A stretch of DNA of 63,479 nucleotides, the filler included, from Rhabdomonas costata (taxonomy: Eukaryota), in NCBI GenBank assembly GCA_019059605.1. It is 27 parts of 27 records of this genome, joined end to end, with 100 filler letters (N's around TTAATTAATTAA, not from the genome) between each part and the next. Parts side by side here need not be neighbours in the genome. Positions count along the whole stretch, not along the records: positions 2,355 to 4,608 come from JAHMHO010004493.1; 26 more parts are not named here. The stretch is one strand, 5' to 3'. Made by a program: the position numbers and the translations under genes. Under the pieces are notes generated by a model that worked only from the letters and a program-made list of their open reading frames with translations, did no database searches and was not told the origin of the DNA. Below, piece after piece: positions 2,355-46,325 of this stretch. Numbering within the stretch: the first letter of the stretch is position 1; the number at the start of each line of letters is the position of its first letter.

Positions 2355-2483
2355 TTGTGGGTGTTGCTCTCTGGCTCTCGACGTGCCCCTATGGGAACCA
2401 CGTGGGCGGAGCTGTGAGAAGGGACCCTCCCCTCTTCCCCATTCCGACCCCACAGGTACAAGGCAGATGGGAAGTGGCAGGAC

Positions 2484-4581
2484 CTCGTCAAAAGAGGGGA
2501 AGTGCTTCAGGCCGTAGAACGAAGCCCACATCTGCAGCATAGGGTCGGGATGCTCACGGGCCCCCACGGCACCATAGCCGTGCTCAGGGGTGCAATGGGG
2601 GCTGACCACCATGTGGCGGTACTCCATCAGCGGGGGACTCTAAAGCGAGGCACAGCAGAAGAGCCCATAAGTTCCCCCAGCAGCAAACTTGGACCGACCA
2701 GGGTTGGAGACGCATTTCACATGACGGGAAAGCGAAGTGAAGGCTCCAGACCAAAAATCGCGGCATAGCAAATGTCAGGGAAAGGTCCTTCTGCCAACGT
2801 GTTCAAAGTGGGTGGGTTTTACACAAAAAAAAAGGCGCCCAAGCGCGGATGGTTGGTACGGTGTTGCCCTCGAAACGTATCGATTACCGCATGCCGCGAA
2901 GCTAACAAACCTGGGACAAGAAGAGGATGTACAAGCAATGTCGAACGTGGCAGAGATATTTTTCGAAAAGCGATAGGCAGCGTAGAAGGTGAACGACAAC
3001 GAGGGGAAAGCACAACCACATCTTATCCAGATATCCACCCTCACGCAACTCCATAAGCACAAGCCCACAAGCACACGTCTCGCTCAAAGCGCGCCCCCAC
3101 GAGGCCCACGTAGACCCCCTTGGGCTCAAACGTTCCGGGCTCCCCAGGGCGTCCCTGGTTGTTCCTACCCCCGCTGTTGATGAAGAAGGTCGGGGTGCTG
3201 ACCCCAAACAGCGCGGAGAGGGCCCTTTGTTGCAGAAGACGGACAGGTTTATTTTTCCCAGCAACCCGTTTCTATTCTCTTGCTAACAATTATATTCGCT
3301 GTCCTTCCAATGTTGTGGATTATCGCTGACCAGTGCCTTTCAAGAGACAAAAAAAGCAAGCAGTGGGCTGGACATGCGACACACTGCAAACTGGTGCTGA
3401 TCACAAACAGGTCACACAGGTCACACATATGGCACAGCAGTAACTTTCGAAAAAGGCAGGACAAACGTCAGCTCGAAGAGTGTGGCGATCGTTAGCAAAA
3501 CAACGCCCACAAAAAGGGGTGAGAAGGAGTCGCCACGAGGGGCTGCACACAGTTGAGGTTTATGAGTCCCCATCGGTTCGTGAAGATGCCGCAGAAGTTA
3601 TCCTGACCTCCCGTCACTAAACTACGGTTCCGTTCAGTTCCCCCACAACCCTGCTCCAAAGCGCGGCCCAAAACCTTAAGAGAAAGAGGAACAATGATTT
3701 AAAGTACAGCATGTGCGGAATTATGGCTGAGATTGCTTGCAGCTGGATGGACATCCAAATTAGAAGCGCAGTGAGATGCTTGGGTGGGGTTTGGCACCGA
3801 AAAACGCCCACGCAGCCGCGCAAGCAACAATAACAAACCAGCACAATCTTTTTTCGGGGGAAGGTACGAGGGCGAAAAAAAAAGCCGCAGGGTTAAAGCA
3901 GACAAGCGGCACGCATGCATTTCGTCGTAGCTCAGGAGCTCCTTGAGCTGCAGAGCGCCCGCCTCCTGGTCCGTACCGATCTGCTCAAAACCACCTGCGC
4001 CTTCCCTGCGAGGGCCGACCAGGTGGTACTCATCCGTGGAGTCCATGAACACCATCGGCCGCTGGCTTATCAGCCGGTCCAGAAGAACTGCCCAGGTCAT
4101 GCCGGAGTACAGCTCCTTTTTCAATGTGGCCGAATCGACAATGCACCGACAATTCCAGCCCCAAGCGATTGGAGAAGAAAAAGGGAGACAACAAGAAGGA
4201 AAAAACCTCACCAACATGCATGATGCGCCATGCTGACCAAGGTGTGCAGGGTGAGGAGAAGGGGACCTAAAAAGAGCATAACCAGTGAGCCAGTGCAGAA
4301 AAAAAAACGGGAGTTGCAAGGGTTAAATTAGCCTAATTATAAGCACTGGTGCACGCGGGGAAGTTGACCTTACGGGAGGCGCAAAGAAGTGGTCAGTTGA
4401 CTGCGAGTGACCTTTTCTCATCAGAAAAGAAATAAACTCACAACAAGCGTGCCTCCTCTCGGGCAGAGCCCGTCTTCCTTTTGACCTCCAGGAAGGTCTT
4501 CAGAAGGCCCTTGGCGTCCTCGCAGGCGACGATCCGCACGGAGCGGGCCTGCTCGACGATTTCCTGGCGCCTCCTGGGGTC
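2484..4581 (-). CDS. DUF4804 / MavL-like macrodomain-fold protein (putative ADP-ribosylarginine hydrolase), 4 exons, partial
   Basis: Exons 4581-4453, 4115-3919, 3224-3077 and 2639-2484 join in frame: FLEVKRKTGSAREE|ELYSGMTWAVLLDRLISQRPMVFMDSTDEYHL...FEQIGTDQE...LKELLSYDEM|ALSALFGVSTPTFFINSGGRNNQG...VGLVGARFERD|SPPLMEY...PEHGYG. These match the DUF4804 motifs LSYDE-x-x-LSAL, FIN-x-G-x-R-x-N and GARFER. Confidence 0.8.
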
Positions 4582-5227
4582 CTGCCCCGCGAGAGAAGAG
4601 ATGCGGTTNNNNNNNNNNNNNNNNNNNNNNNNNNNNNNNNNNNNNNNNNNNNTTAATTAATTAANNNNNNNNNNNNNNNNNNNNNNNNNNNNNNNNNNNN
4701 NNNNNNNNTGTTTTTGTGGACCCAATGTGTGCTCTGGGTGCTGGTTTCACGTTCTGGGGCTGCGTTGCTCCGGGTTGGAGTGAACTGACGTCGTTCGTTT
4801 GCAAAGATGGACTTAGGCGCTTTCCATCCGCATCTCTAACATCTCTAACTGGAGTTCGCTGGGAACGGAAAGGAAAGGTTAGCATACCTGTGGCGGCAAT
4901 GCTGACGGATAGTTGCAGCTCAAGGAAGCGAAGGGTAGAGCGAATGCATGGTAGGCAGTGTTAAAAAGTGGTTTAGGTTGGGAAAAGCGTCGATAACAAG
5001 CTGCCCACACATAGCAAAGCGAGGGTTTGGTTTTGGTCTGGTTTCATCCACACTGGCATTGACTTTATCAGTGGTTTTAATCTCTTCAGCGGACCGCGGA
5101 AAGCAGCTAGAGGTCTCGCTGATTTTCAGCGGCTTTGTGAATGTCCTACGCTTTTCGGTTTTCAGGATTTGTGTGGTTCTTTTGGGTTTTCTTTTTTGTT
5201 TGTTTTCTTTTGTGGTTTGTTCTCAGG

Positions 5228-21041: not shown

Positions 21042-21639
21042 GGGCCACAGCAAGACGGGCTCAAAGAGGTTAAGGGAAAACCCCAACACANNNNNNNNNN
21101 NNNNNNNNNNNNNNNNNNNNNNNNNNNNNNNNNNTTAATTAATTAANNNNNNNNNNNNNNNNNNNNNNNNNNNNNNNNNNNNNNNNNNNNGGGGGTTGGG
21201 GGGCAGCGCATGCTTGCTGTCCGAGGGGAGCACTCCTGGCGCATGTGGTGTGTGTGAATTGAGAGACAGGTTTCCTTTTTCTTAGTCGGATTTCACCAAC
21301 AAACCAACAGGGTACGAGCAAGGACAAGCGGAGACACTAAGAAGAGAAGCCGAAAAGAGAAGGAGCTAAATTGGGTGGCTACATAAGAAAAACTAACTAT
21401 TCAAAGCAATATCTTTCAGGCTAGCGGAATAGCGGTGGCAAGCAATTTAATCTGACTGAAGTGTGGTCATGGAGAAGAAAGAAGGCCCCTTGCTCGGTTG
21501 CACTGGCGCAAGACACCATCGGAAGTGTTACTGTTTGAAAAACTGAAGTGTAGAGATGTATGAGGGGCCGTCCAGGTGCGGAGCAAGCAATATCTGGAAG
21601 GAAGCGGATGAGCCAGAAGGAAGAACGCCCTCCACAGAC

Positions 21640-23201
21640 CCATCAGTTGCTCAAAGGGCTTGAAGGGCTCCCCAGGGGTCATCTCGTATTTGTTGTCGAC
21701 GTCCACGCTGGCGGACAAGTCGGAGGCGAACGGGGAGTAGTGGAAAGGGTAGAACCTGTACGCAAACATGATATATATGATGTAGCCCTCCAGTCCATCT
21801 CTTCACACCAGAAGAATCGTCAGCTGCATATATCGTTCATGAATGACAGCCTGCACAGCCATACAAGGTCACAGGAAAGCCGGAGAGAAGCGGCATACCA
21901 CTTCCACGACGGGCAGCCGTTGAAGTAGTACCTGCTCGGGAAGCAGAGGAAAGAAGGGATTAATGCGTGGCGCCTGGCGAAGTCGTAACCACAGCTCCAT
22001 GGAAACATCAAACGCGAGATTGGAACTAGAACCAATTACGCAGCCCTACAATCAGCAGCATAGATGCATCGCCACTGCGACGTGCGAAGGCAAAATAAAA
22101 AAGAAACGCATCTCGCCAGACAACTCAGAGATGGGCGTTAACCTTAGCATACGATGCTCCCTGCAACAGTGTAGTGGACGTGGTGGTATGTTATGTTGTG
22201 TGGGAGTGCTGCCCAAAAATATTAATACAGATTAATAAAGATTAATACGTTTTACACAAACCCTTCGGAACCCTAAAGACCAGGAAAAGGCGATGACATC
22301 GGTAATTGCAGTGAAAAAGCCCCATCTGTTTGTGCGCTGCATGCACTCAATCGGGCTTACATTTAAAATTAGCTGCGCTGCTTCATTACAAAAAAAGAAA
22401 AACCAAAGAACACGAACTCAGAAGCACGCCGAAATCACAGGAATATGTCAACATGCCGGAACACCCAAACCAGGCCCTCGAAGTAGCTCTCCGAGGCGCT
22501 GGAGGCCTTGGCGATGATGTCGGCAGCATCCCCCGCCCCAAGCTTGCTCTGGTAATACCTACGACAGAGACCATGACCTTTCTTCAATTTGCACAGGAAA
22601 AACGCTGCTTCCGCGACCTCACTCTGTGACAAATTTTTTTTTTCGGTTTTAAACCGCTGACTTTTTGGATGCTGGTTATACTGTTTTTCTTGATAAACCA
22701 CAAGTTCGATGTAACCTGCTTTGCAGTTTCCCTTGTTTTTTGAGTTTTTTGAGCTTGGCGGCAGGAGGCGTATTCCATTCCTGATCGAAGGGAGTAAATT
22801 GCATAGGCACAGTAATGATGAGTAGTAGTGATGCAAGGTCTTCTTCTTGGACTCCAGGGGAAAGGAAACTGGCTTTCGCTTTAAGATCGAACCAAGACTG
22901 AACCCTAAAAGTTAAAGGAAATAGTGTGTACTTCACACTGCCACACTGCCCCCCCCCCTCCGGTTTTTTTGGCAGGTTTCCAGTTTTTCTTCAGGCAAGA
23001 ACTGGCCATCTACCGTAAGAAAGATTTGAGATTGGGTATTTAATGCTCCAAGAAGAGGAGAAGGAGGGGGGAGGGCAGTGGAATAACCGCTCTTTCCACC
23101 CAGGCTCCCCGAATCTCACCGAGTCGGGTTGACGCCCCTCAACGTTGTTCATGTCTTCCTTCTTGAACAACATCAGGTCGGCAAGCAAATCCGCGGGCGG
23201 C
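21640..23201 (-). CDS. XRN-family 5'-3' exoribonuclease (partial, 4 exons)
   Basis: DSVRFGEPGWKER|YYQSKL...SYFEGLVWVFR|YYFNGCPSWKW|FYPFHYSPFASDL...GEPFKPFEQLMG, the conserved XRN region 2. XRN1 versus XRN2 not resolved. Confidence 0.95.
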
Positions 23202-23544: not shown

Positions 23545-23860
23545 TATCGACTGCGTCCCAAAGAGTGTCGAAGGGCACCCTCTGGTCCATGTCTTTGAAC
23601 GCCTCCTGGACGGTCTGCCGGCGCTGGTCAACCAGTTCCAAAGCCGTAGGGTCCGCAAACTCCAGCTGGCCTTGCACGGTGCAGCGCACGCGTTCCAGGA
23701 TCAGCAGAAAGTCCCGGGGCCTGACCTCCTCAGCTTCGCTGGCGCACTGCAGCATGTCCCGCAGGATCCGCTTCCCCAGGTTATAGAACGCTGCGATGAG
23801 GTCGTCCTTGGACATCGACAGGACTCCAAACACCGAGGAGGCAAAGGGCAGATGCTTGTC
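23545..23860 (-). CDS. Exon of unknown helical protein, probably downstream exon of the ART gene
   Basis: gcag| acceptor, GC3-rich open frame DKHLPFASSVFGVLSM...FDTLWDAVD to contig end; same strand, about 370 bp downstream of the ART ORF. Confidence 0.55.
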
Positions 23861-24225
23861 CTGCAATCCTGGCCATTTTGGGCTCTACCGAAGTGTAAAT
23901 TTATGCGGTGCTATTATCGTTTTCTTTTCGGGAGAAGGGCGCAGTTCGATTGGGGACCGGGGTACCCCCAGCTCTCAAAAAGTACTCGAACAGTGAAGAT
24001 GTAACAGAAGTTCAAGAAAACAACTGGTACCAATGTTTAACTATTCACCATACATTATTGACTACACACACATGGTCGAAACTCAGGCTAAATAGGAGTG
24101 AACAGATAAGCAAGTTGACCTACTGCATATCAGAAAAGGGCGAAAAGGGGTTTTTTAAAAACCAAAAATCATTCTTGGACCGGTTCACCCAAAAGGAATG
24201 AACGGCAGGGCATACTGGCCTAATA

Positions 24226-25614
24226 TTAATTATGTAACCCGAGGTGCCAGGAGAGTCCGCAGAAATAGCGACTATCAGTCCATAAGGTCCTGCCAAATTC
24301 AGCGGGGCCGCAAGACAAACAAGCGCTGGCAAGGTCATTCAAGACAAGGGGCTCGTGCTCCTTGAAGTCGCTCTCCACATCGTCCTTGGGCAGCTTATTG
24401 ATCAGGACATGGCGAACGCTATCATCCCTCTCCGCCCTCATGGACACGGCCCACAGCTGCAACACAAGCACACTGGGGAGGATGAAGGGAAGGTTCACCC
24501 TGTCCTCCTTTGGGGTAGGTAGTAGAGTTGTCCCTGAGGGCCAGAGGTACTCCGCTTCCTTGGGGTACTGCGAGACCCAGGAGACAGGGGCGCCGTGGGT
24601 AAGCCAGCAGTACCTCTTGGGGTAATTTGGGCTGTCCGGGGGGTGCTGTTGCCCCTTCGCGTTGAAGAAGTCCGCAACCAGCGGAGGTGGGCTGCGGATC
24701 ACAAACAGGACGTTCCCTTCGAAGGTCCCCTCAGTTGCGATGCTACGTTCCGAGGTGGTAGACATAAATGCAAGGTCACACAGGGAGGGCATCAACAACA
24801 GCGAGGTGATTCTGTTGGCGTTGTAGAGCCCATCGGGGCGTCGGGCAGGGGGAAGGGCCTCGTAGAACTCCCGCTTCAAAGCACGATACTGGTGCACGTA
24901 CACGGGTGAGAGCGCGCCGTTAAGACCGCGATAGAGCTCCTGCGGATGCTCGGGGTCAGAGTCGGAGAGGAGGATCAAGGCGGCATCCAGAGCAGCGCAG
25001 GTGTGAAAGAATTCATCGCCCATACGCCGGCGACACTCATTGAGGGCTCGATAGGCTGGCCCCGTGTACAGCCGCAGAGCAGCCAGGTGAGCTTGGTTCA
25101 GACCCGCCTTCACCGCAAAGGGGTGAGCGCAGAAGTCTGCAAAGGTCTTCCCTTGGTTGCCCTCGTCCCGAACGTCACCATCCCATGTTCGACACTGTGG
25201 GTCCTCGGGGACAGGATTCATGATGTACTCCCAGTGAAGCTTCAAGTCAGTCCGCCCAGACAATTCTCTCTGGACTGCGGTAAACTGGCTCTCTGGAGTG
25301 AGGACAGGAGCATTGCAAGAGTAGCGGTTGTGCCGAACCATGAAAATGCCTAGGTTCAGCTCTAGGTACTTCAGGTCCCTGGCATCCTCAGGGGCCTTCT
25401 TGCGGCCTCCACGCGCTCCTCGCCCAGTCGTGGGAGCGATTGCGGGAGGGTCGGCCGCGACGGCGGCGGTATTGGCGGCGGGAATTGGCAAGGTAGGAGG
25501 AGAGGTTTCCCTTTGCGTTGGCACGTCATTGTGCTGCCCTGCCACCTCGGATGCTGACACCGCCGGGGAAGTGCCAGTGTGAGCGTCTGTTCCGCAAGAC
25601 GCCCCACATCCCAT
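24226..25614 (-). CDS. R-S-E class (ARTC/toxin-like) mono-ADP-ribosyltransferase with N-terminal acylation motif
   Basis: Long uninterrupted ORF with start MGCGASC after tttttatcag; ALRLYTGPAYRALN, LYRGL (R), AFMSTT (S), VSWVSQYPKEAEYL (ExE). Confidence 0.88.
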   Translation of the reverse strand: MGCGASCGTDAHTGTSPAVSASEVAGQHNDVPTQRETSPPTLPIPAANTAAVAADPPAIAPTTGRGARGGRKKAPEDARDLKYLELNLGIFMVRHNRYSCNAPVLTPESQFTAVQRELSGRTDLKLHWEYIMNPVPEDPQCRTWDGDVRDEGNQGKTFADFCAHPFAVKAGLNQAHLAALRLYTGPAYRALNECRRRMGDEFFHTCAALDAALILLSDSDPEHPQELYRGLNGALSPVYVHQYRALKREFYEALPPARRPDGLYNANRITSLLLMPSLCDLAFMSTTSERSIATEGTFEGNVLFVIRSPPPLVADFFNAKGQQHPPDSPNYPKRYCWLTHGAPVSWVSQYPKEAEYLWPSGTTLLPTPKEDRVNLPFILPSVLVLQLWAVSMRAERDDSVRHVLINKLPKDDVESDFKEHEPLVLNDLASACLSCGPAEFGRTLWTDSRYFCGLSWHLGLHN

Positions 25615-33387: not shown

Positions 33388-34185
33388 CTAACCCCAAGCA
33401 GCAGGCAAATCAGAGAAGCAAAGGGAGCCATACCACCACGAGGTAGGGCATAAACGCAGGTAATCAACCGAAGCTTTCTGGTTGTACCTTCCCTTCACCG
33501 AGACCAGACCGGGCTTCACTTCTTCAGCTCCAATGGCCACCTCATTGTAATCCACATCCCGAACGTCCACTGCCGTACCAAACTCAACAAGAATCTCTCT
33601 TTCCTCCGCGTAGCACGACAGCTCAGCAATGTTGTAGCCCTGAATCTCGGACACCGTGTAGAGGGTGCGCTCGCCTGTTTTGCCAGTCATGAAATTGGCA
33701 AGCACTTTGGGATCGGTGGTGAAGGAGGTCAGGCTGTTAAAGTAAATGGTCCGGACTCCAATCTTTATGGCCCCATCCACCCCACCTTCTGCTCGGTAGC
33801 CCTTCACCCCACAGATCCGGAATCGCTCTGGAAGACACCGCAGTCCAATCAGAACCAACTTCGCAAAGAACAGCACATCCCAAAATCGCACATTTCCCTG
33901 GTTGGACATCAGGTGTCTCAGAACATAACACAGCAGCTCTCCGGTGAAGCTTCGGAGGGCGGCCAGACACTCGACGCTGACAGTGCAACGGACGTCTCCA
34001 GGGGCTTTCTCCTGGGCCCAGCGGAAACACTCCTCCAGGCAGTCCTCGCCCGCGCTCCAGGCTGCGTTGAAATCGAAGGTCATCTCTCCTCTGTGTGGGT
34101 GGGTGAAGTGCACCCCATCCAGTTTCTGCACTGCCTCGCGCAATGTGAGGACCGGAATATCGTCAAGAAGCGATGCACGGTTCAT
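33388..34185 (-). CDS. Second R-S-E class mono-ADP-ribosyltransferase
   Basis: Uninterrupted ORF: AALRSFTGE, GLRCLP, GYRAEG (R), FNSLTSFTT (S), RTLYTV, GYNIAELSCYAEEREILV (ExE). Confidence 0.82.
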   Translation of the reverse strand: MNRASLLDDIPVLTLREAVQKLDGVHFTHPHRGEMTFDFNAAWSAGEDCLEECFRWAQEKAPGDVRCTVSVECLAALRSFTGELLCYVLRHLMSNQGNVRFWDVLFFAKLVLIGLRCLPERFRICGVKGYRAEGGVDGAIKIGVRTIYFNSLTSFTTDPKVLANFMTGKTGERTLYTVSEIQGYNIAELSCYAEEREILVEFGTAVDVRDVDYNEVAIGAEEVKPGLVSVKGRYNQKASVDYLRLCPTSWWYGSLCFSDLPAAWG

Positions 34186-35487
34186 TGTAAGGCGAGCAAC
34201 AAAAAAATCAAAGTGTTTGGAGAAACGAAAAAAACCCCAGTGGAAAGAGTAGCGCCAACAAGCCATCTGAAGTGTGTGATTGCTTTCGAGTTTGCATCTT
34301 ACGTGATGGACCTTCAGGCAGACAGTCTGCTGAATTAAACCTAAATGAGGCACAGAAGGGCGAGGGGAGGTGTCTGTACACACAGTTCAGCATCCTTTCA
34401 TTGAGTTTTCTGAGTTTTCGATTGGTTTTTTCAGGTGATTTTCAATTGGGTGGTGTTCTTAGGAAGGGGTGGGGGCGCCCTCCTGTCCTTAAAGTACATG
34501 AGGAAGCAGGCTTTTTGATTGAGTTTGGGTTTAGGTTTATGATAGAGCCCCATAAAAGGCAAAAAGCTACAAGACAATTCTCGACCCGAAATTTATACGT
34601 CTTACCGAGAGGGTATGCGGTGTGGTTGGAGGGGTGGATACCGCCTCATTTTTGACGAGAGGCGGGAAGGCGGGTAGATACATCATCCTAATGCATCGCA
34701 TCATCACTCACATCAGGTTCTCTTTCTTGCCCTCTGACTGCGGTGGCTGCCATCAGATTAGTGGATGCATCCGTAAGGTGGGTCTTGGCGTTGGAATTGG
34801 CATCTCTCACTCACTTCACTCATCAGCCCACCTTGCGGGCCCACTCTCAGCGTCACCATCCCAGCATTGACATCGCCTCAACCACCGGAGGTAGGATTGG
34901 CATGTCGTGGGGTGGCCGCTGCCCTTGGTTACCCATCACGCTAATACATCGAGTGGAGTAGCAAATGACCTCAGGGAGAGTGGAGGGGTTGACTGCAGCG
35001 GCCACCCTGACATAGCGACAGGAGTGACATCTTGGCATGGTTGCCTTGGCACTGCATCATGGCCCCTGGTTAGTACTGTGGTGGTGGGTTACAGCTATGG
35101 GTTATGTATACTCTTGCCACTCCATCAGTGCATCAATAAGGTGGTGGTCTATGTCTGATCTTACCACTACGGTAGAGTGTGTACCCTGAGCTCATCGCGT
35201 AGTGCATACAACANNNNNNNNNNNNNNNNNNNNNNNNNNNNNNNNNNNNNNNNNNNNTTAATTAATTAANNNNNNNNNNNNNNNNNNNNNNNNNNNNNNN
35301 NNNNNNNNNNNNNGTGTTGGGTTCTTCCACAGTAGATAAAGTAATGTGGAATAATAGGCCAATGCGGCCGTTGTTTTGTGCCACACTTATGTTGTGCTGG
35401 TGCTGGTGATGGAGGTATATATCCTCTCACCCCTCCCCTTTGGTAAGGAGGGGGCAAAAGAAAATGGATCTTGTCGCCTCGTCCCAG

Positions 35488-36265
35488 GTGCTGCCGCGAT
35501 GGTTCTGATGGCCGCCGATACCGCTGCTAAGCTGGGTGTGAAGCCCCTGGCTGTGATCTCCAGCATGGGCAAGGGCGGCTGCGCCCCAGAGCTGATGGGG
35601 GAGTCCCCCGTGCCCGCCATGGTGGACATGATGAAGAAGTCCGGCCGCAAGCTTTCTGATTACGGTCGCATTGAGGTGTGTCGAAGAATCTAGACCGCAG
35701 GGTACATTGCAGGGTACCGCAGGGTAAACTGCCCCGATGAAAGAAAAAGAAAACCTGTAGCTACATTTGCCTCCCAGCCTGGTACCCCCCACCCGTTTCG
35801 CGCACACGCGCTGCCACCACAGCTCAACGAGGCCTTCGCCGCACAGTACATTGCCTGCGAGCGGATGATGGACCTCAACCGGGACGTCTGCAACGTCAAC
35901 GGCAGCGGGATTGGTCTCGGCCACCCTGTGGGCTGCACCGGCAGCCGCATCATCATCAGCCTGCTGTACGAAATGATGGCCTCGAAGACCAAATATGGGT
36001 ATTTCCCCCTTGCTTATCCGTTGCTCAAATTTCTTAAAGATGTTCCACTGGTTAATATCGCTGTTTCGTTGTCGCGGTACCGACGAAAGTGGGTGTGTTG
36101 TATTTTTAATTGGATACCCAGTCTTTCGGGTGAGACGTATTCGGATAAGTTTTGAGAATTTTTTGTGTCCTTTTCATTTCTTTGCTCGACCACCCACATC
36201 TCAGGTGTGCCTCCCTCTGTGGCGGCGGCGGGGTCTCTCTTGCCACCGAGCTCACCCTGTGCTAA
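35488..36265 (+). CDS. Thiolase (acetyl-CoA C-acyltransferase), last 3 exons
   Basis: Exons 35488-35675, 35823-35998 and 36205-36265: GAAAMVLM...IE|LNEAFAAQ...NVNGSGIGLGHPVGCTGSRI...YG|CASLCGGGGVS...*; NEAF, GHP and CxGGG motifs present. Confidence 0.96.
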
Positions 36266-42205: not shown

Positions 42206-43125
42206 CTGCGAGGCATCCAGGAAAACAGTATTCCAAATGCGTGCAAAAAGGCGACCTGGGACCACCACAACANNNNNNNNNNNNNNNNNNNNNNNNNNNN
42301 NNNNNNNNNNNNNNNNTTAATTAATTAANNNNNNNNNNNNNNNNNNNNNNNNNNNNNNNNNNNNNNNNNNNNTAAATTAACTAAAAGCGGTGACGTAAAG
42401 TATGCCAGCACTCGAAAAGACTGTATTTTTGTGTAAGGGGGATAGGTAGGCTTTGCCAGTGCCCCCTAGATGATTGTTTTTGCCTAGCAGCTGAAAACTA
42501 CTGCTGGCTAAGGACTCGCCAATGGCTGGGATAGGGAAAATTGCTACCACTGCCAACCGTTACCACTCCCCCCCCCCCCAACTTCGGTTGCACCTTGGGG
42601 CCTGCTATTACCTCTGGCGGGGCGTTAGCAGGCGTTGATGAATTGAGGGGAAAAAAGCCCGCTTAAAAGAGAAAAGTTGCGCAGGGACACGTCTCCCTCA
42701 GCCACCCCAAAAGGGTGAGGGGACGGTGTAAGTGTGAGGTGCCTATCGCTGGTGGGCCGTTGATGTCGGGACGGCAACCGCATTCCATGTGCCATATGGG
42801 CATTAATAATGGATCGGATTAAATAATGGATCAACTGTGGATCTTTTCTTTCGTTAAATTTAAAGGATAGCCAGCTCCGAACCAATGAAAAAGAAAATGA
42901 AAGGAAACTCGGACCCCAAGGACCGGCCACCGGAGGCCTACTATACATGCAAAAGACCCCAGGGGCCTGCTTCGCTTTGCCGTCCTAATTCACGTCAACT
43001 AACATGAAACAAAGTCTATTCATATTTGAGATTTTTGTCCATGTCCATCAGTTATACCTTCACGAGAGCACATTCTCTGTGTTCGACCCCCCCCCCTCCT
43101 TTTTTCGTATCGGCGTTTCTTTCAG

Positions 43126-44620
43126 GTTTGGATTTACGATGGCGGAGCGCGCGGTGGTCGTTGACGCGCTCTCCCTGGAGCTCAGTGTGACCTGGGAGAG
43201 GGACTTGCTGGCCCAGTTTGGGCACGAGATGGAGGAGGGAGCCCGGGCCAGCTGTGCGGGGAGCCCGCAGCCCCGGGCGCAGCGGGAGCTCTTCTGCCGC
43301 GGTGCGTGGTCTCCGGCGATGGTGTTTGCGAGGGAGGACCTGAACCCCGGACACGTCGTCAGTGGTCCGGCAATAATTTCGGATGTATGCCTGCTTCGGG
43401 GAAATGCCTTTGGTGGTGCTCTATGGTGCGGTGCGAGTCTGGAATGCACCGGCAAGTGAGCTTTGTTGCAGTAGTACCTCAATTTGCTCAGTTTGCTCAG
43501 TTTTTGATGACCTGATGGCAGTTTTGATAGCTTTCGGCGCATGGTGTAGTGAATGTCTTCCTTTTTTTTTTTTCGGATTGTAGACACATATCCCAAGTTG
43601 CAAATTGGGTTCCGCTGGCGGTTGCGTGGAAGACGCTGGAAGACCTTTTCACTTGAGTCCACCCCTTATGATGTTCATGCATTCTCTCAACGGGCGAGTT
43701 TATTTCCGACGGCATGTGTGCGAAAGTTTGGAAGAGTGCAGGCTGGATACAAACGTCTCAAGTCCTATGTACAGCTCTGTGAATTGTGTCAGTGATGTGT
43801 ATGGTGAAAGGCAGCGTGAAGTGGTTTTCTGGTGTGGGATGGGGATGGGGGTGACACAGGACACGGCCACCACAGTTTTAGACCCTGGGTGGGAGGCCTC
43901 TGTGACGGCTTGTCTCAGCCTGGTATTGAGGCGGGTCGTTCCGTTGCCTCGGGCTCCTGCCATGGGGACGACGGTGGACCCGGTGTGTATGGTGTTGAGG
44001 GCCTTTGAAGCGGGGCCTGCTCCTTTCTACTGAGTTTCTACCGATTTGCTGAACCTTAGTGTTCTCCGAGAACTTTAAGTCCGCTAAGGTGTCTGTGCGA
44101 GAAAATATGCTCTATCTGTTGAGTGCAGTGCACTCGCTGCCCTTCTGATTTCACAGGGTGCGTGCTGTATGGTACTATGAAGGAATCTGCGCGTAAGACC
44201 TTGTTTTGACGTTTTTCTTCGAGTCCCAGCGGGTGATACGTTAACACGTGGAGCATATGTTCTTTTTCATTACAGGTGCTGTTGGAAGTCTTCGGTAACC
44301 GCTTCATGTCCATCGCAGAGCAGATGGGCTCTGCCCTGCAGAATACCGCGTACTCGGTATGCCAGCACCAAGAATGAGTGACCCGAGATCTTTCGTATGA
44401 CCACATGTCCAACCCCTTGTTGTGACGCGCTTTGCTTGCTCTCGTTTGCATCTGCTGTTATGGGCAGATGCAATCTTCAGTTTGTTCAGTTTGGGGGGTT
44501 AGTTGCGTTTTGGCTCGTTTTTGTTGCACGTGCCCTGTCACCACACCGCGCAGGTCAACATTAAGGAAAGGCTGGACTTCTCATGTGCGCTGTTCACGCC
44601 TGCTGGGGAGCTCGTCACCA
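43126..44620 (+). CDS. 5-oxoprolinase (fused hydantoinase A/B), partial, 4 exons
   Basis: RFGF...VSGPAII|DTATTVLDPGW...GTTVDP|VLLEVFGNRFMSIAEQMGSALQNTAYS|VNIKERLDFSCALF; GT-AG junctions in phase. Confidence 0.93.
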
Positions 44621-45004: not shown

Positions 45005-45892
45005 CTCCAGCTGGGCGATCTTGTGGTGCTCCTCTCTGCTGGAGAAGCATTGCCGTAGGGCGGAGAGCAGCCTGGAGCCCACGCTGGGCCGCTGCCCCGC
45101 CGCGGGAACCCCATCCCTAACAAAAGGGAAAGTAGAAAAAGGCAGGCATACAATCAAACGCACAGGAAAACGCGCACATTCAGAAAACAGACAAAACAGA
45201 AAAAACACGTGTGCGACCAAACAGGCCAGACGACAGGTCCGGAGGCCGGCAAAGAAAATTAGGAGGGTGGTCCTGGAAAAACCCCGGCACAAACACATTT
45301 ACACGAACATTCTCTCGCAGGCAGGCAGAGGCACGCACCGGCTCCTGCTCCGCAGCTCCCACTGCCCCAGGGCCAGCCGCTTGCGCTTCATGGCGATGCT
45401 CTCCATGACCTGCTGCTGCCGCCACTCCACCGCGGAGGTCTCCGTGCACTGCCCCCGCTGAAGAGACACCCAAAATAAGGAAAGGAGAACAAGGAGCGTC
45501 GGAAACAGAAGGCAGATAGACAACTGATTAGCTGGTGTGACAAGGGAGAGACCACACGTGACTAGAAAACCGCAAGAATGAGTCAGGGGTCAAGATGCGC
45601 AATGCGTAAGAATCCACACGAACACACGCACTGGCATGGCTGCAGGCGCCGCCATCTACAGCCTCCATTCGTCGTACCCCCACACTGACAGTGCATGGTG
45701 CGGGCGCACAAGGGAGCGGCCAGATGTCCTCGACCATCCACTCCCAAACATGACACACCACGCGCGCGCGCACACACACACACGCACGTGCCTTCCAAAA
45801 GTAGCTGAGGTAGGACCGCGGGGAGGAAATCGCACCGAAGCCGCTCAGCAGAGCCATCGCCGTCACCCCGACAATCCCCACCCGGCTAACCC
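45005..45892 (-). CDS. GPR89: GPR89/GPHR/GTG-family Golgi pH regulator (partial, 3 exons)
   Basis: [31 protein letters not shown]|...QVMESIAMKRKRL matches [31 protein letters not shown]...KKKR. Confidence 0.9.
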
Positions 45893-46325
45893 CTTCGTAA
45901 TTTTTTTTGGGAACTCTTTGCTTCAAGAGATGAGCAAGAAAGAGAGAAAGCACATGACACAAATCACACGCACGCAGGCGGGCATACACGGACACACACA
46001 TAAGTGTGGATACGGGACAACCTCCAGCCTCTGTGCCGTTCAGCTCAAACCACCCCCCTCCAATTATTTATTTATGGGACGAAACAGAATACACTCAAAC
46101 AAGAGGGGCAACCCGAGGAAATGACAGAACGCAAAAGAGGGGCACCAGGATAGAACCAACAAGGAGGCTTGCTTGAGCCATACCTCAACACTATCTTTGC
46201 TGAGTTTCTGAACGAGTGGCAGGTGAAATGAAATTTTTTCATGCTCTGGCAGAACATTTTTTCTCATGGGGAAGCTCAGAGACTACTTCGAAAAGAGGGG
46301 TATTGCACCCGTTCAGATTCCGTTG

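Follow-up and report, generated by a model that had tools for sequence, protein, structure and literature searches.

We analyzed a stretch of DNA from the protist Rhabdomonas costata (assembly GCA_019059605.1; hereafter the window), which is 63,479 bases long and consists of 27 contigs of 2250-2287 nucleotides (nt), separated by spacers that are N runs around TTAATTAATTAA. On the second contig we found part of a gene that, judging from its sequence, almost certainly encodes a macrodomain hydrolase of the MavL-like (DUF4804) family, and on two other contigs we found genes for proteins with the R-S-ExE motifs of ADP-ribosyltransferases (ARTs), here called ART1 and ART2. The explanation that best accounts for the evidence as a whole, and that we favor with moderate confidence, is that the first of these is the middle part of an intron-containing nuclear gene that encodes a MavL-like eraser of ADP-ribosylation, and that the cell's own R-S-ExE ARTs are its likely writers.

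An intron-containing gene for a MavL-like hydrolase

Contig 2 (2355-4608) carries the hydrolase gene on its minus strand. A word-based search with the exon-2 region, made among longer proteins, returned a single protein out of 2819 candidates, the 463-residue EukProt protein eukprot:RCo006027 (P0001), which already bears a precomputed label of the Pfam MavL-like family (PF16062) in a public collection. When P0001 was compared with the window using tblastn, four colinear blocks were obtained on the minus strand. The parts of the gene are listed below, with the matches to PF16062 (cut-off, 27 bits) that were obtained when the open reading frame (ORF) of an exon was scanned alone.

4456..4608, minus strand: exon 1 as present, cut by the contig end; residues 45-95 of P0001 (tblastn, 96% over 52 residues)
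4119..4455, minus strand: intron 1, 337 nt; two readings of its borders
3919..4118, minus strand: exon 2; PF16062 at E 1.8e-15, 57.2 bits, model positions 65-137 of 448; contains the Met aligned with F137 of the Drosophila enzyme CG2909
3225..3918, minus strand: intron 2, 694 nt; GC..AG borders (GCATGC...AAAG), or CA..GG if slid
3077..3224, minus strand: exon 3; PF16062 at E 5.7e-10, 39.1 bits, model positions 134-182; contains the Arg aligned with the adenine-stacking R198 of CG2909 and the Glu aligned with E237 of CG3568 and E107 of MavL
2640..3076, minus strand: intron 3, 437 nt; GT..AG borders (GTGTGC...TTTAG)
2481..2639, minus strand: exon 4; 53/53 residues identical to P0001 212-264

Once joined, exons 4608-4456, 4118-3919, 3224-3077 and 2639-2481 amount to 660 nt and translate into 220 residues with zero stops, 218 of which are identical to residues 45-264 of P0001; the two that differ are I50L and L117M. 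A GT donor (GTCCTG at 2483) comes after exon 4, and the rest of the contig, down to its end at 2355, is intron sequence. P0001 is a product of the same gene, from another strain or another allele, or else of a paralogue that arose very recently. An earlier note on this DNA had described a four-exon DUF4804-type gene at 2484-4581, and our results agree with it as to the gene, its place and its four exons, which splice open; the limits have to be corrected to 2481-4608. Its expectation that the spliced product would match a DUF4804 profile was also borne out, both by exons 2 and 3 and by P0001, which matches PF16062 over model positions 4-428 of 448 (E 1.1e-103, 347.9 bits).

The borders of intron 1 can be read in two ways, which place the 3′ border of exon 1 at 4456 (non-canonical intron) or at 4453 (GC-AG intron). 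Read as GC..AG (4452-4116), the intron would leave a Glu where P0001 has Lys96, while non-GT/AG borders at about 4455-4119 would yield the exact sequence of P0001 through an in-frame AAG before exon 2. The residues E-K, which are kept at this junction in both of the Drosophila enzymes considered below, speak for the non-GT/AG reading, although both readings stand. A third candidate, a GTGAGT donor at 4441, was rejected, as it has no downstream in-frame AG acceptor and P0001 lacks the five residues that it would add. The pairing of the intron ends (10+U7+10) varied from -0.1 to -5.0 kcal/mol with the border chosen (-0.7 kcal/mol for the GC-AG reading) and is suggestive at best, and the CCAGG/CCTG consensus of Euglena nonconventional introns is not matched exactly. 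For Euglena, the available part of a published survey counts 16,151 of 28,337 introns that lack GT/GC-AG borders and whose ends pair (PMC11170887). The non-GT/AG reading would make intron 1 a member of a kind that is abundant in euglenids. The style of the introns and the RCo label of P0001 suggest a lineage of euglenid type.

To place the protein in its family, we relied on P0001. Its best solved relatives are two Drosophila proteins, each aligned over about 400 residues: RE54994p (PDB 8DMT, E 1.4e-66), which we take to be the crystal structure of CG2909 reported with the family, and CG3568 (PDB 8DMU, E 6.9e-64). As far as the available text of the defining study goes, MavL, Larg1, CG2909 and CG3568 take ADP-ribose off arginine only, among defined substrates, and for CG2909 and CG3568 this is an in vitro result with mono-ADP-ribose (PMC10951314). 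The same text defines the class by two motifs, [V/I/L]xGxGxGx[F/W/Y] and the catalytic loop WDxx[S/A]xPGN[D/E][F/Y][F/W/Y], which bears the two catalytic acidic residues (PMC10951314). Both are intact in P0001, where the diphosphate-binding loop motif occupies residues 318-326 and the catalytic loop residues 410-421, that is, past residue 264, where the contig stops.

Specificity for arginine can be addressed on the contig itself, as the residues named for it (F137, R198 and S226 of CG2909; F148, R209 and E237 of CG3568; PMC10951314) fall in the N-terminal half. Their counterparts were counted on the alignment of P0001 with 8DMT and 8DMU, with the offset between chain and native numbering inferred from construct limits and chain lengths. 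Exons 2 and 3 encode a Met at CG2909 F137, an Arg at the adenine-stacking R198 and a Glu at CG3568 E237 (MavL E107), so that the expected combination, an arginine-specific insertion with a hydrophobic residue, plus a Glu or Ser and a stacking Arg, is present there as M, E and R. Moreover, the accessible portions of two 2026 papers describe CG2909 and CG3568 as inactive on thymine- and uracil-linked ADP-ribose, which fits specificity for protein arginine. The encoded enzyme is most likely specific for protein mono-ADP-ribosyl-arginine. The full protein would hydrolyze the bond between arginine and ADP-ribose by the mechanism of the family: ADP-ribose would be held in a deep pocket, where the V-x-G-x-G-x-G-x-W and W-D-x-x-S-x-P-G-N-E-Y-W loops would position the water, while the arginine would be held by the Glu and the hydrophobic residue of the N-terminal insertion, both of which are encoded in exons 2 and 3.

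Like P0001, CG2909 and CG3568 are eukaryotic, single-domain, apparently cytosolic proteins of about 460-500 residues that carry both motifs. The enzyme described here differs from them in coming from a protist and not from an arthropod, in having Met in place of F137, and in that the window copy is a fragment with a predicted activity. The Legionella proteins MavL (PF24754) and Larg1 belong to the same macrodomain class and share the two motifs with P0001, but they are far more distant in sequence, P0001 scoring below threshold against the Legionella-type MavL model (E 8.1e-6, 25.4 bits against a cut-off of 27). They are also secreted bacterial metaeffectors that reverse the arginine ADP-ribosylation made by a partner effector, a role of which there is no sign here. 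A scan of viral contigs with P0001 gave three pattern matches, none of them confirmed; a medusavirus virion protein is annotated as DUF4804.

ART1, an R-S-ExE transferase with an acylation-type N-terminus

The first of the two transferase genes is the following.

24226..25614 (coding 25614-24229), minus strand: ART1, a single-exon ORF of 462 residues plus stop that starts with MGCGASC; R-S-ExE domain at about residues 105-400

ART1 contains the motifs L-Y-R-G, F-M-S-T-T and K-E-A-E. An exhaustive HMMER search, whose query started 10 residues past the true ATG, found 399 relatives at E ≤ 1e-3, of which 68 reached E ≤ 1e-10 and 4 reached E ≤ 1e-30. From the best 150 of these 399 we picked 53 by eye for long matched stretches and aligned them with the ART1 domain. 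In the resulting alignment the catalytic residues are well conserved (R in 51, S in 47, the first E in 41 and the second E in 42 of the 54 rows), and 24 of the 54 members matched PF03496 and 18 matched PF01129 at E ≤ 1e-3; ART1 alone gave E 0.32 with PF03496. Although phmmer with ART1 returned no relevant match from the PDB (contactin, E 0.72), the profile built from the alignment matched 11 distinct PDB sequences at E ≤ 0.01, all of them ARTs, with HopU1 at the top (2.5e-13), and Tre1, VsdC, ExoT, SpvB, Vis, Lmo0066 and ExoS further down.

The predicted structure gave a congruent picture. The AlphaFold 2 (AF2) model of ART1 has a mean predicted local distance difference test score (pLDDT) of 87.6 and a predicted template modeling score (pTM) of 0.86, and Foldseek returned 123 matches for it at E ≤ 1e-3, the best 35 of which are all ADP-ribosyltransferases or effectors with the ART fold. 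They are led by HopU1 (1.2e-9), Tre1 (TM score 0.70, target-normalized), C3 exoenzymes, XopAI and rat ART2.2. ART1 thus shares with the R-S-ExE (cholera-toxin-like, ARTC) enzymes both the fold, at Foldseek E-values from 1.2e-9 to 1e-5, and the R, S-T-T and E-x-E residues. Because relatives, motifs, profile and fold agree, we consider ART1, with great confidence, a genuine R-S-ExE mono-ADP-ribosyltransferase that belongs to a sizeable, mostly eukaryotic family, as the earlier note had proposed. Members of this family mostly score below or near the Pfam cut-offs for ARTs.

The N-terminus of ART1 (25594-25614, minus strand) reads Met-Gly-Cys-Gly-Ala-Ser-Cys, and 11 of the 53 relatives also start with MG, 4 of them with MG[CS]. 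In ART1 the MGC start is probably a myristoylation/palmitoylation signal that would anchor the protein to a membrane, and the MG starts of the relatives suggest membrane-anchored intracellular ARTs. EF-hands occur in 8, WD40 repeats in 2 and RCC1 repeats in 2 of the 54 aligned sequences, and the neighbors of ART1 in the Atlas are eukaryote-dominated. Together, the relatives with EF-hand, WD40 and RCC1 domains and the MGC start argue for an intracellular, signaling-type family of eukaryotic ARTs, not for toxins or ecto-enzymes. Unlike the latter, neither ART1 nor ART2 has a signal peptide or a secretion domain by eye. A second ORF lies 3′ of ART1 on the same strand (23546-23884, minus); it starts M-S-K-D-D-L, runs off the contig and has no Pfam match.

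ART2, a divergent ART-like domain

The second gene is represented by one exon.

33436..34185, minus strand: ART2, first exon, 250 residues, divergent ART-like domain (Y-R, S-F-T, E-R-E), ending at a GT donor

Beyond this donor the ORF reads through to a stop at 33388, probably within an intron. Two relatives, P0002 and P0003, are found in the EukProt set named RCo (85% and 68%). The best named model for all three sequences is that of XopAI (NCBIfam NF041404), an ART-fold type III effector of Xanthomonas (PDB 6K94) that is also a structural neighbor of ART1; it matched at E 0.0016 for the window copy, 6.4e-5 for P0002 and 1.3e-6 for P0003, over model positions 93-238 of 251, a match that spans the entire domain. 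With scores of 18-28 bits against an equivalog cut-off of 300, this is a distant link of fold or family and not orthology; a further difference is that a relative of ART2 is fused to a kinase. A Pfam ART model matched P0003 only (E 0.0014), and PHROGs gave no ART match. In the Atlas, ART2 was linked to ADPrib_exo_Tox clusters (score 0.96, 181 shared features). When it was compared with the ART1 family by hhalign, the two aligned colinearly (E 9e-4), with L-A-A-L-R...T-G, S-x-T and E-x-E in register. The S-x-T and E-x-E blocks have the same register in a weak match to Vis (phmmer E 1.8; Vis in the PDB, E 0.12), and the E-R-E of ART2 aligns with the E-A-E of both ART1 and Vis. ART2 is likely a divergent member of the ART fold; that it is catalytically competent would be less certain than that. 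Hence, of the two R-S-ExE ARTs that the earlier note had placed at 24226-25614 and 33388-34185, both ORFs exist with their R, S-x-T and E-x-E blocks, the first assignment being firm and the second only probable.

In P0002, the sequence past ...C-P-T-S-W leads into a protein kinase domain (PF00069, E 9.3e-11, residues 285-362), and the ART2 exon stops with its GT donor at the very residue where P0002 goes into the kinase. No kinase exons were found on the ART2 contig. The window gene probably encodes an ART-kinase fusion, with ART2 as its N-terminal domain and the kinase exons located outside the contig. The identity among the three sequences is mosaic: over residues 1-125 the window copy and P0002 share 86/125 residues (69%) while P0002 and P0003 share 127/127, and over residues 126-250 the window copy and P0002 are identical (125/125) while P0003 shares 76/118 (64%). 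This pattern would arise if two paralogues had been joined by error in the assembly of P0002, or if at least two or three ART2 paralogues exchange segments; under either reading, the kinase tail is attached to the half in which P0002 and the window gene do not differ.

Other genes in the window

The window has 186 stop-to-stop ORFs of 100 residues or more. We ran a Pfam scan on 182 of them, the other 4 being the focal ORFs, which were scanned separately. Among all 186, no match related to ADP-ribosylation was found outside the eraser contig and the two ART contigs, in agreement with the earlier statement that 3 of the 27 contigs touch ADP-ribosylation. The remaining matches are only pieces of ordinary eukaryotic genes, split by introns over neighboring ORFs:

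21470-22911, minus strand: fragments of an XRN 5′-3′ exonuclease (XRN helical domain)
35358-36152, plus strand: fragments of a thiolase C-terminal domain
42989-43456, plus strand: fragments of an oxoprolinase/hydantoinase
45531-46067, minus strand: fragments of GPHR (Golgi pH regulator)

The GC content of the contigs ranges from 0.43 to 0.56. The window is a fragmented, intron-rich eukaryotic assembly.

Discussion

The hydrolase and the two transferases were brought together in the earlier note as one expanded circuit of arginine ADP-ribosylation, possibly with a role in defense. Their co-occurrence in one assembly stands; for a single circuit, for its being expanded and for a defensive role, we found nothing beyond that co-occurrence. 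The chemistry of the pair fits, as ExE ARTs would plausibly write the arginine mark that DUF4804 enzymes remove, and all three proteins, in none of which a signal peptide is seen by eye, appear to be intracellular. The most likely writers would be the cell's own cytosolic R-S-ExE transferases, among them the two in the window: ART1 as a lipid-anchored writer and ART2 as a writer within an ART-kinase fusion. Whether this hydrolase and these ARTs have substrates in common is another matter, and we regard a shared circuit as a tentative and rather doubtful proposition. The fuller claim, that a free-living protist runs intracellular signaling by arginine ADP-ribosylation with a lipid-anchored ART and an ART-kinase as writers and a MavL-like macrodomain as eraser, is improbable as it stands.

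Several observations weigh against our preferred explanation. The three genes lie on three separate contigs of about 2.25 kb, and their presence in one assembly is the sole link between them: no genetic linkage or fusion of transferase and hydrolase was found, and nothing else on the three contigs relates them in the Pfam scan. The eraser gene is cut at both ends of its contig, which encodes 220 of the roughly 463 residues, or 48% of the coding sequence, and the 5′ exon or exons, the stop and both catalytic motifs lie off the contig; the catalytic loop of the window gene is vouched for only via P0001, because the motif lies beyond the contig. Scanned alone, the exon-1 ORF matched PF16062 at just E 0.19 (model positions 23-67), and the exon-4 ORF gave no match. 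ART1 scored under the 22.3-bit cut-off of PF01129 (E 0.006; 16.4 bits for the whole ORF, 19.1 for the domain), a word-based search found no homologue among 1645 candidates, and its best relative (E 4.2e-53) is only 42% identical, with none closer in the representative library. As to ART2, the window copy has no Pfam match, BLASTP between ART1 and ART2 was not significant, and the HMMER profile of the ART1 family was effectively null on ART2 and its relatives (0.4, -0.2 and -0.7 bits against -1.4 for the best shuffle); the hhalign comparison had a probability of just 22.6% and left the placement of the catalytic Arg ambiguous, and the AF2 model, made from a 3-row alignment, was unusable (pLDDT 38). 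ExE transferases usually modify arginine, but some ExE ARTs modify guanine in DNA, so the motif alone is no proof of an arginine target. To these must be added two points on the origin of ART1, whose sequence does not connect it with the RCo set, where it has no close relative, and whose contig has the fifth lowest 4-mer correlation of the 27.

Some of these observations would be expected if one or both of the ART-like proteins wrote no ADP-ribose onto protein arginine and formed no circuit with the hydrolase, an alternative that survives better than the others and that we nonetheless consider unlikely. ART2 may then be a catalytically altered regulatory domain, or a domain through which the kinase senses nicotinamide adenine dinucleotide (NAD), and ART1 may be an NAD glycohydrolase or act on a target that is not arginine or not a protein. 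The great divergence of ART2, with its missing Pfam match, its poor model, its null profile test and its ambiguous Arg, is compatible with this, as is the Phe that its paralogue P0003 has at the Ser position of the S-x-T block; XopAI, its best named model, is not known to have a demonstrated transferase activity. Its E-R-E, however, is in register with the corresponding residues of ART1 and Vis. ART1 is less easily accommodated, since it keeps the R, the S-T-T and the E-x-E, conserved in 41-51 of the 54 family rows, and its closest solved relatives, HopU1, Tre1, SpvB, ExoS/T and Vis, are arginine-specific enzymes.

The hydrolase might also not be paired with the cell's own ARTs, which would have separate roles, and serve instead in detoxification or defense against arginine ADP-ribosylation of host proteins by the toxins or effectors of bacterial prey, symbionts or pathogens. 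According to the available text of the defining study, those bacterial representatives of the wider class that have been characterized operate between host and pathogen, and its authors propose a specialized host-pathogen function for this patchy family (PMC10951314). Pairs of ART toxin and immunity hydrolase are present among the structural neighbors of ART1 (6dre, 8za7), and the three genes show no linkage in the window. On the other hand, the organism's own ExE ARTs, which look intracellular given the acylation-type N-terminus of ART1 and the kinase fused to a relative of ART2, would need an eraser, and the nearest characterized relatives of the hydrolase are Drosophila proteins of a housekeeping type. 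We judge this alternative quite unlikely, and prefer to see the cell's own transferases as the writers.

This preference assumes a single genome. The nearest relatives of the hydrolase and of ART2 are both in the RCo set, whereas those of ART1 are not, and ART1 is free of introns over 1.4 kb in an intron-rich genome; the ART2 domain is likewise encoded without introns. The 4-mer correlation to the other contigs (mean 0.755, standard deviation 0.094, minimum 0.507) is 0.655 for ART1, 0.715 for ART2 and 0.839 for the hydrolase, so that the value of ART1, if below the mean, is inside the range of the 27 contigs. The GC content at third codon positions of its coding segment (0.69) falls between those of ART2 (0.65) and XRN (0.70), the hydrolase having 0.82, and its relative synonymous codon usage correlates with that of the DUF4804 exons (r 0.76). 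In addition, its nearest Atlas clusters are eukaryotic, and a T-rich tract precedes the ATG on its contig, as it does on that of ART2. On contigs of 2 kb such tests have little power, but none of them points to a foreign bin, and the prospect raised in the earlier note, that the ART contigs would bin with a different organism, did not materialize: ART2 has its relatives in the RCo set, and ART1 has concordant codon usage and an unremarkable 4-mer profile. That at least the ART1 contig comes from a different organism in the sample, and that the "system" is an assembly artefact spanning two genomes, is very improbable.

It was not until 2024 that arginine-specific macrodomain erasers were defined, and they were then thought to be confined to bacteria, fungi and arthropods; we know of no physiological writer for their eukaryotic members. 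No protist member was found in the titles and abstracts of the papers that a library search on MavL-like, DUF4804, PF16062, CG2909 or CG3568 proteins returned, the supplements of which might list further taxa, and our finding modestly widens the taxonomic range of the DUF4804 family. At present it amounts to one taxonomic data point and three candidate genes, and not to a demonstrated pathway. A protist that has this eraser together with intracellular ExE transferases, one of which is apparently linked to a kinase, would offer a simple setting in which to study the role of endogenous arginine ADP-ribosylation. If the proposed pairing is true, it would be the first cellular setting, neither of a pathogen nor of an arthropod, for a DUF4804 eraser with its writers identified; the ART-kinase fusion would couple ADP-ribosylation to phosphorylation; and, while animals use an ARH1-type hydrolase, the eraser would here be a MavL-like macrodomain.

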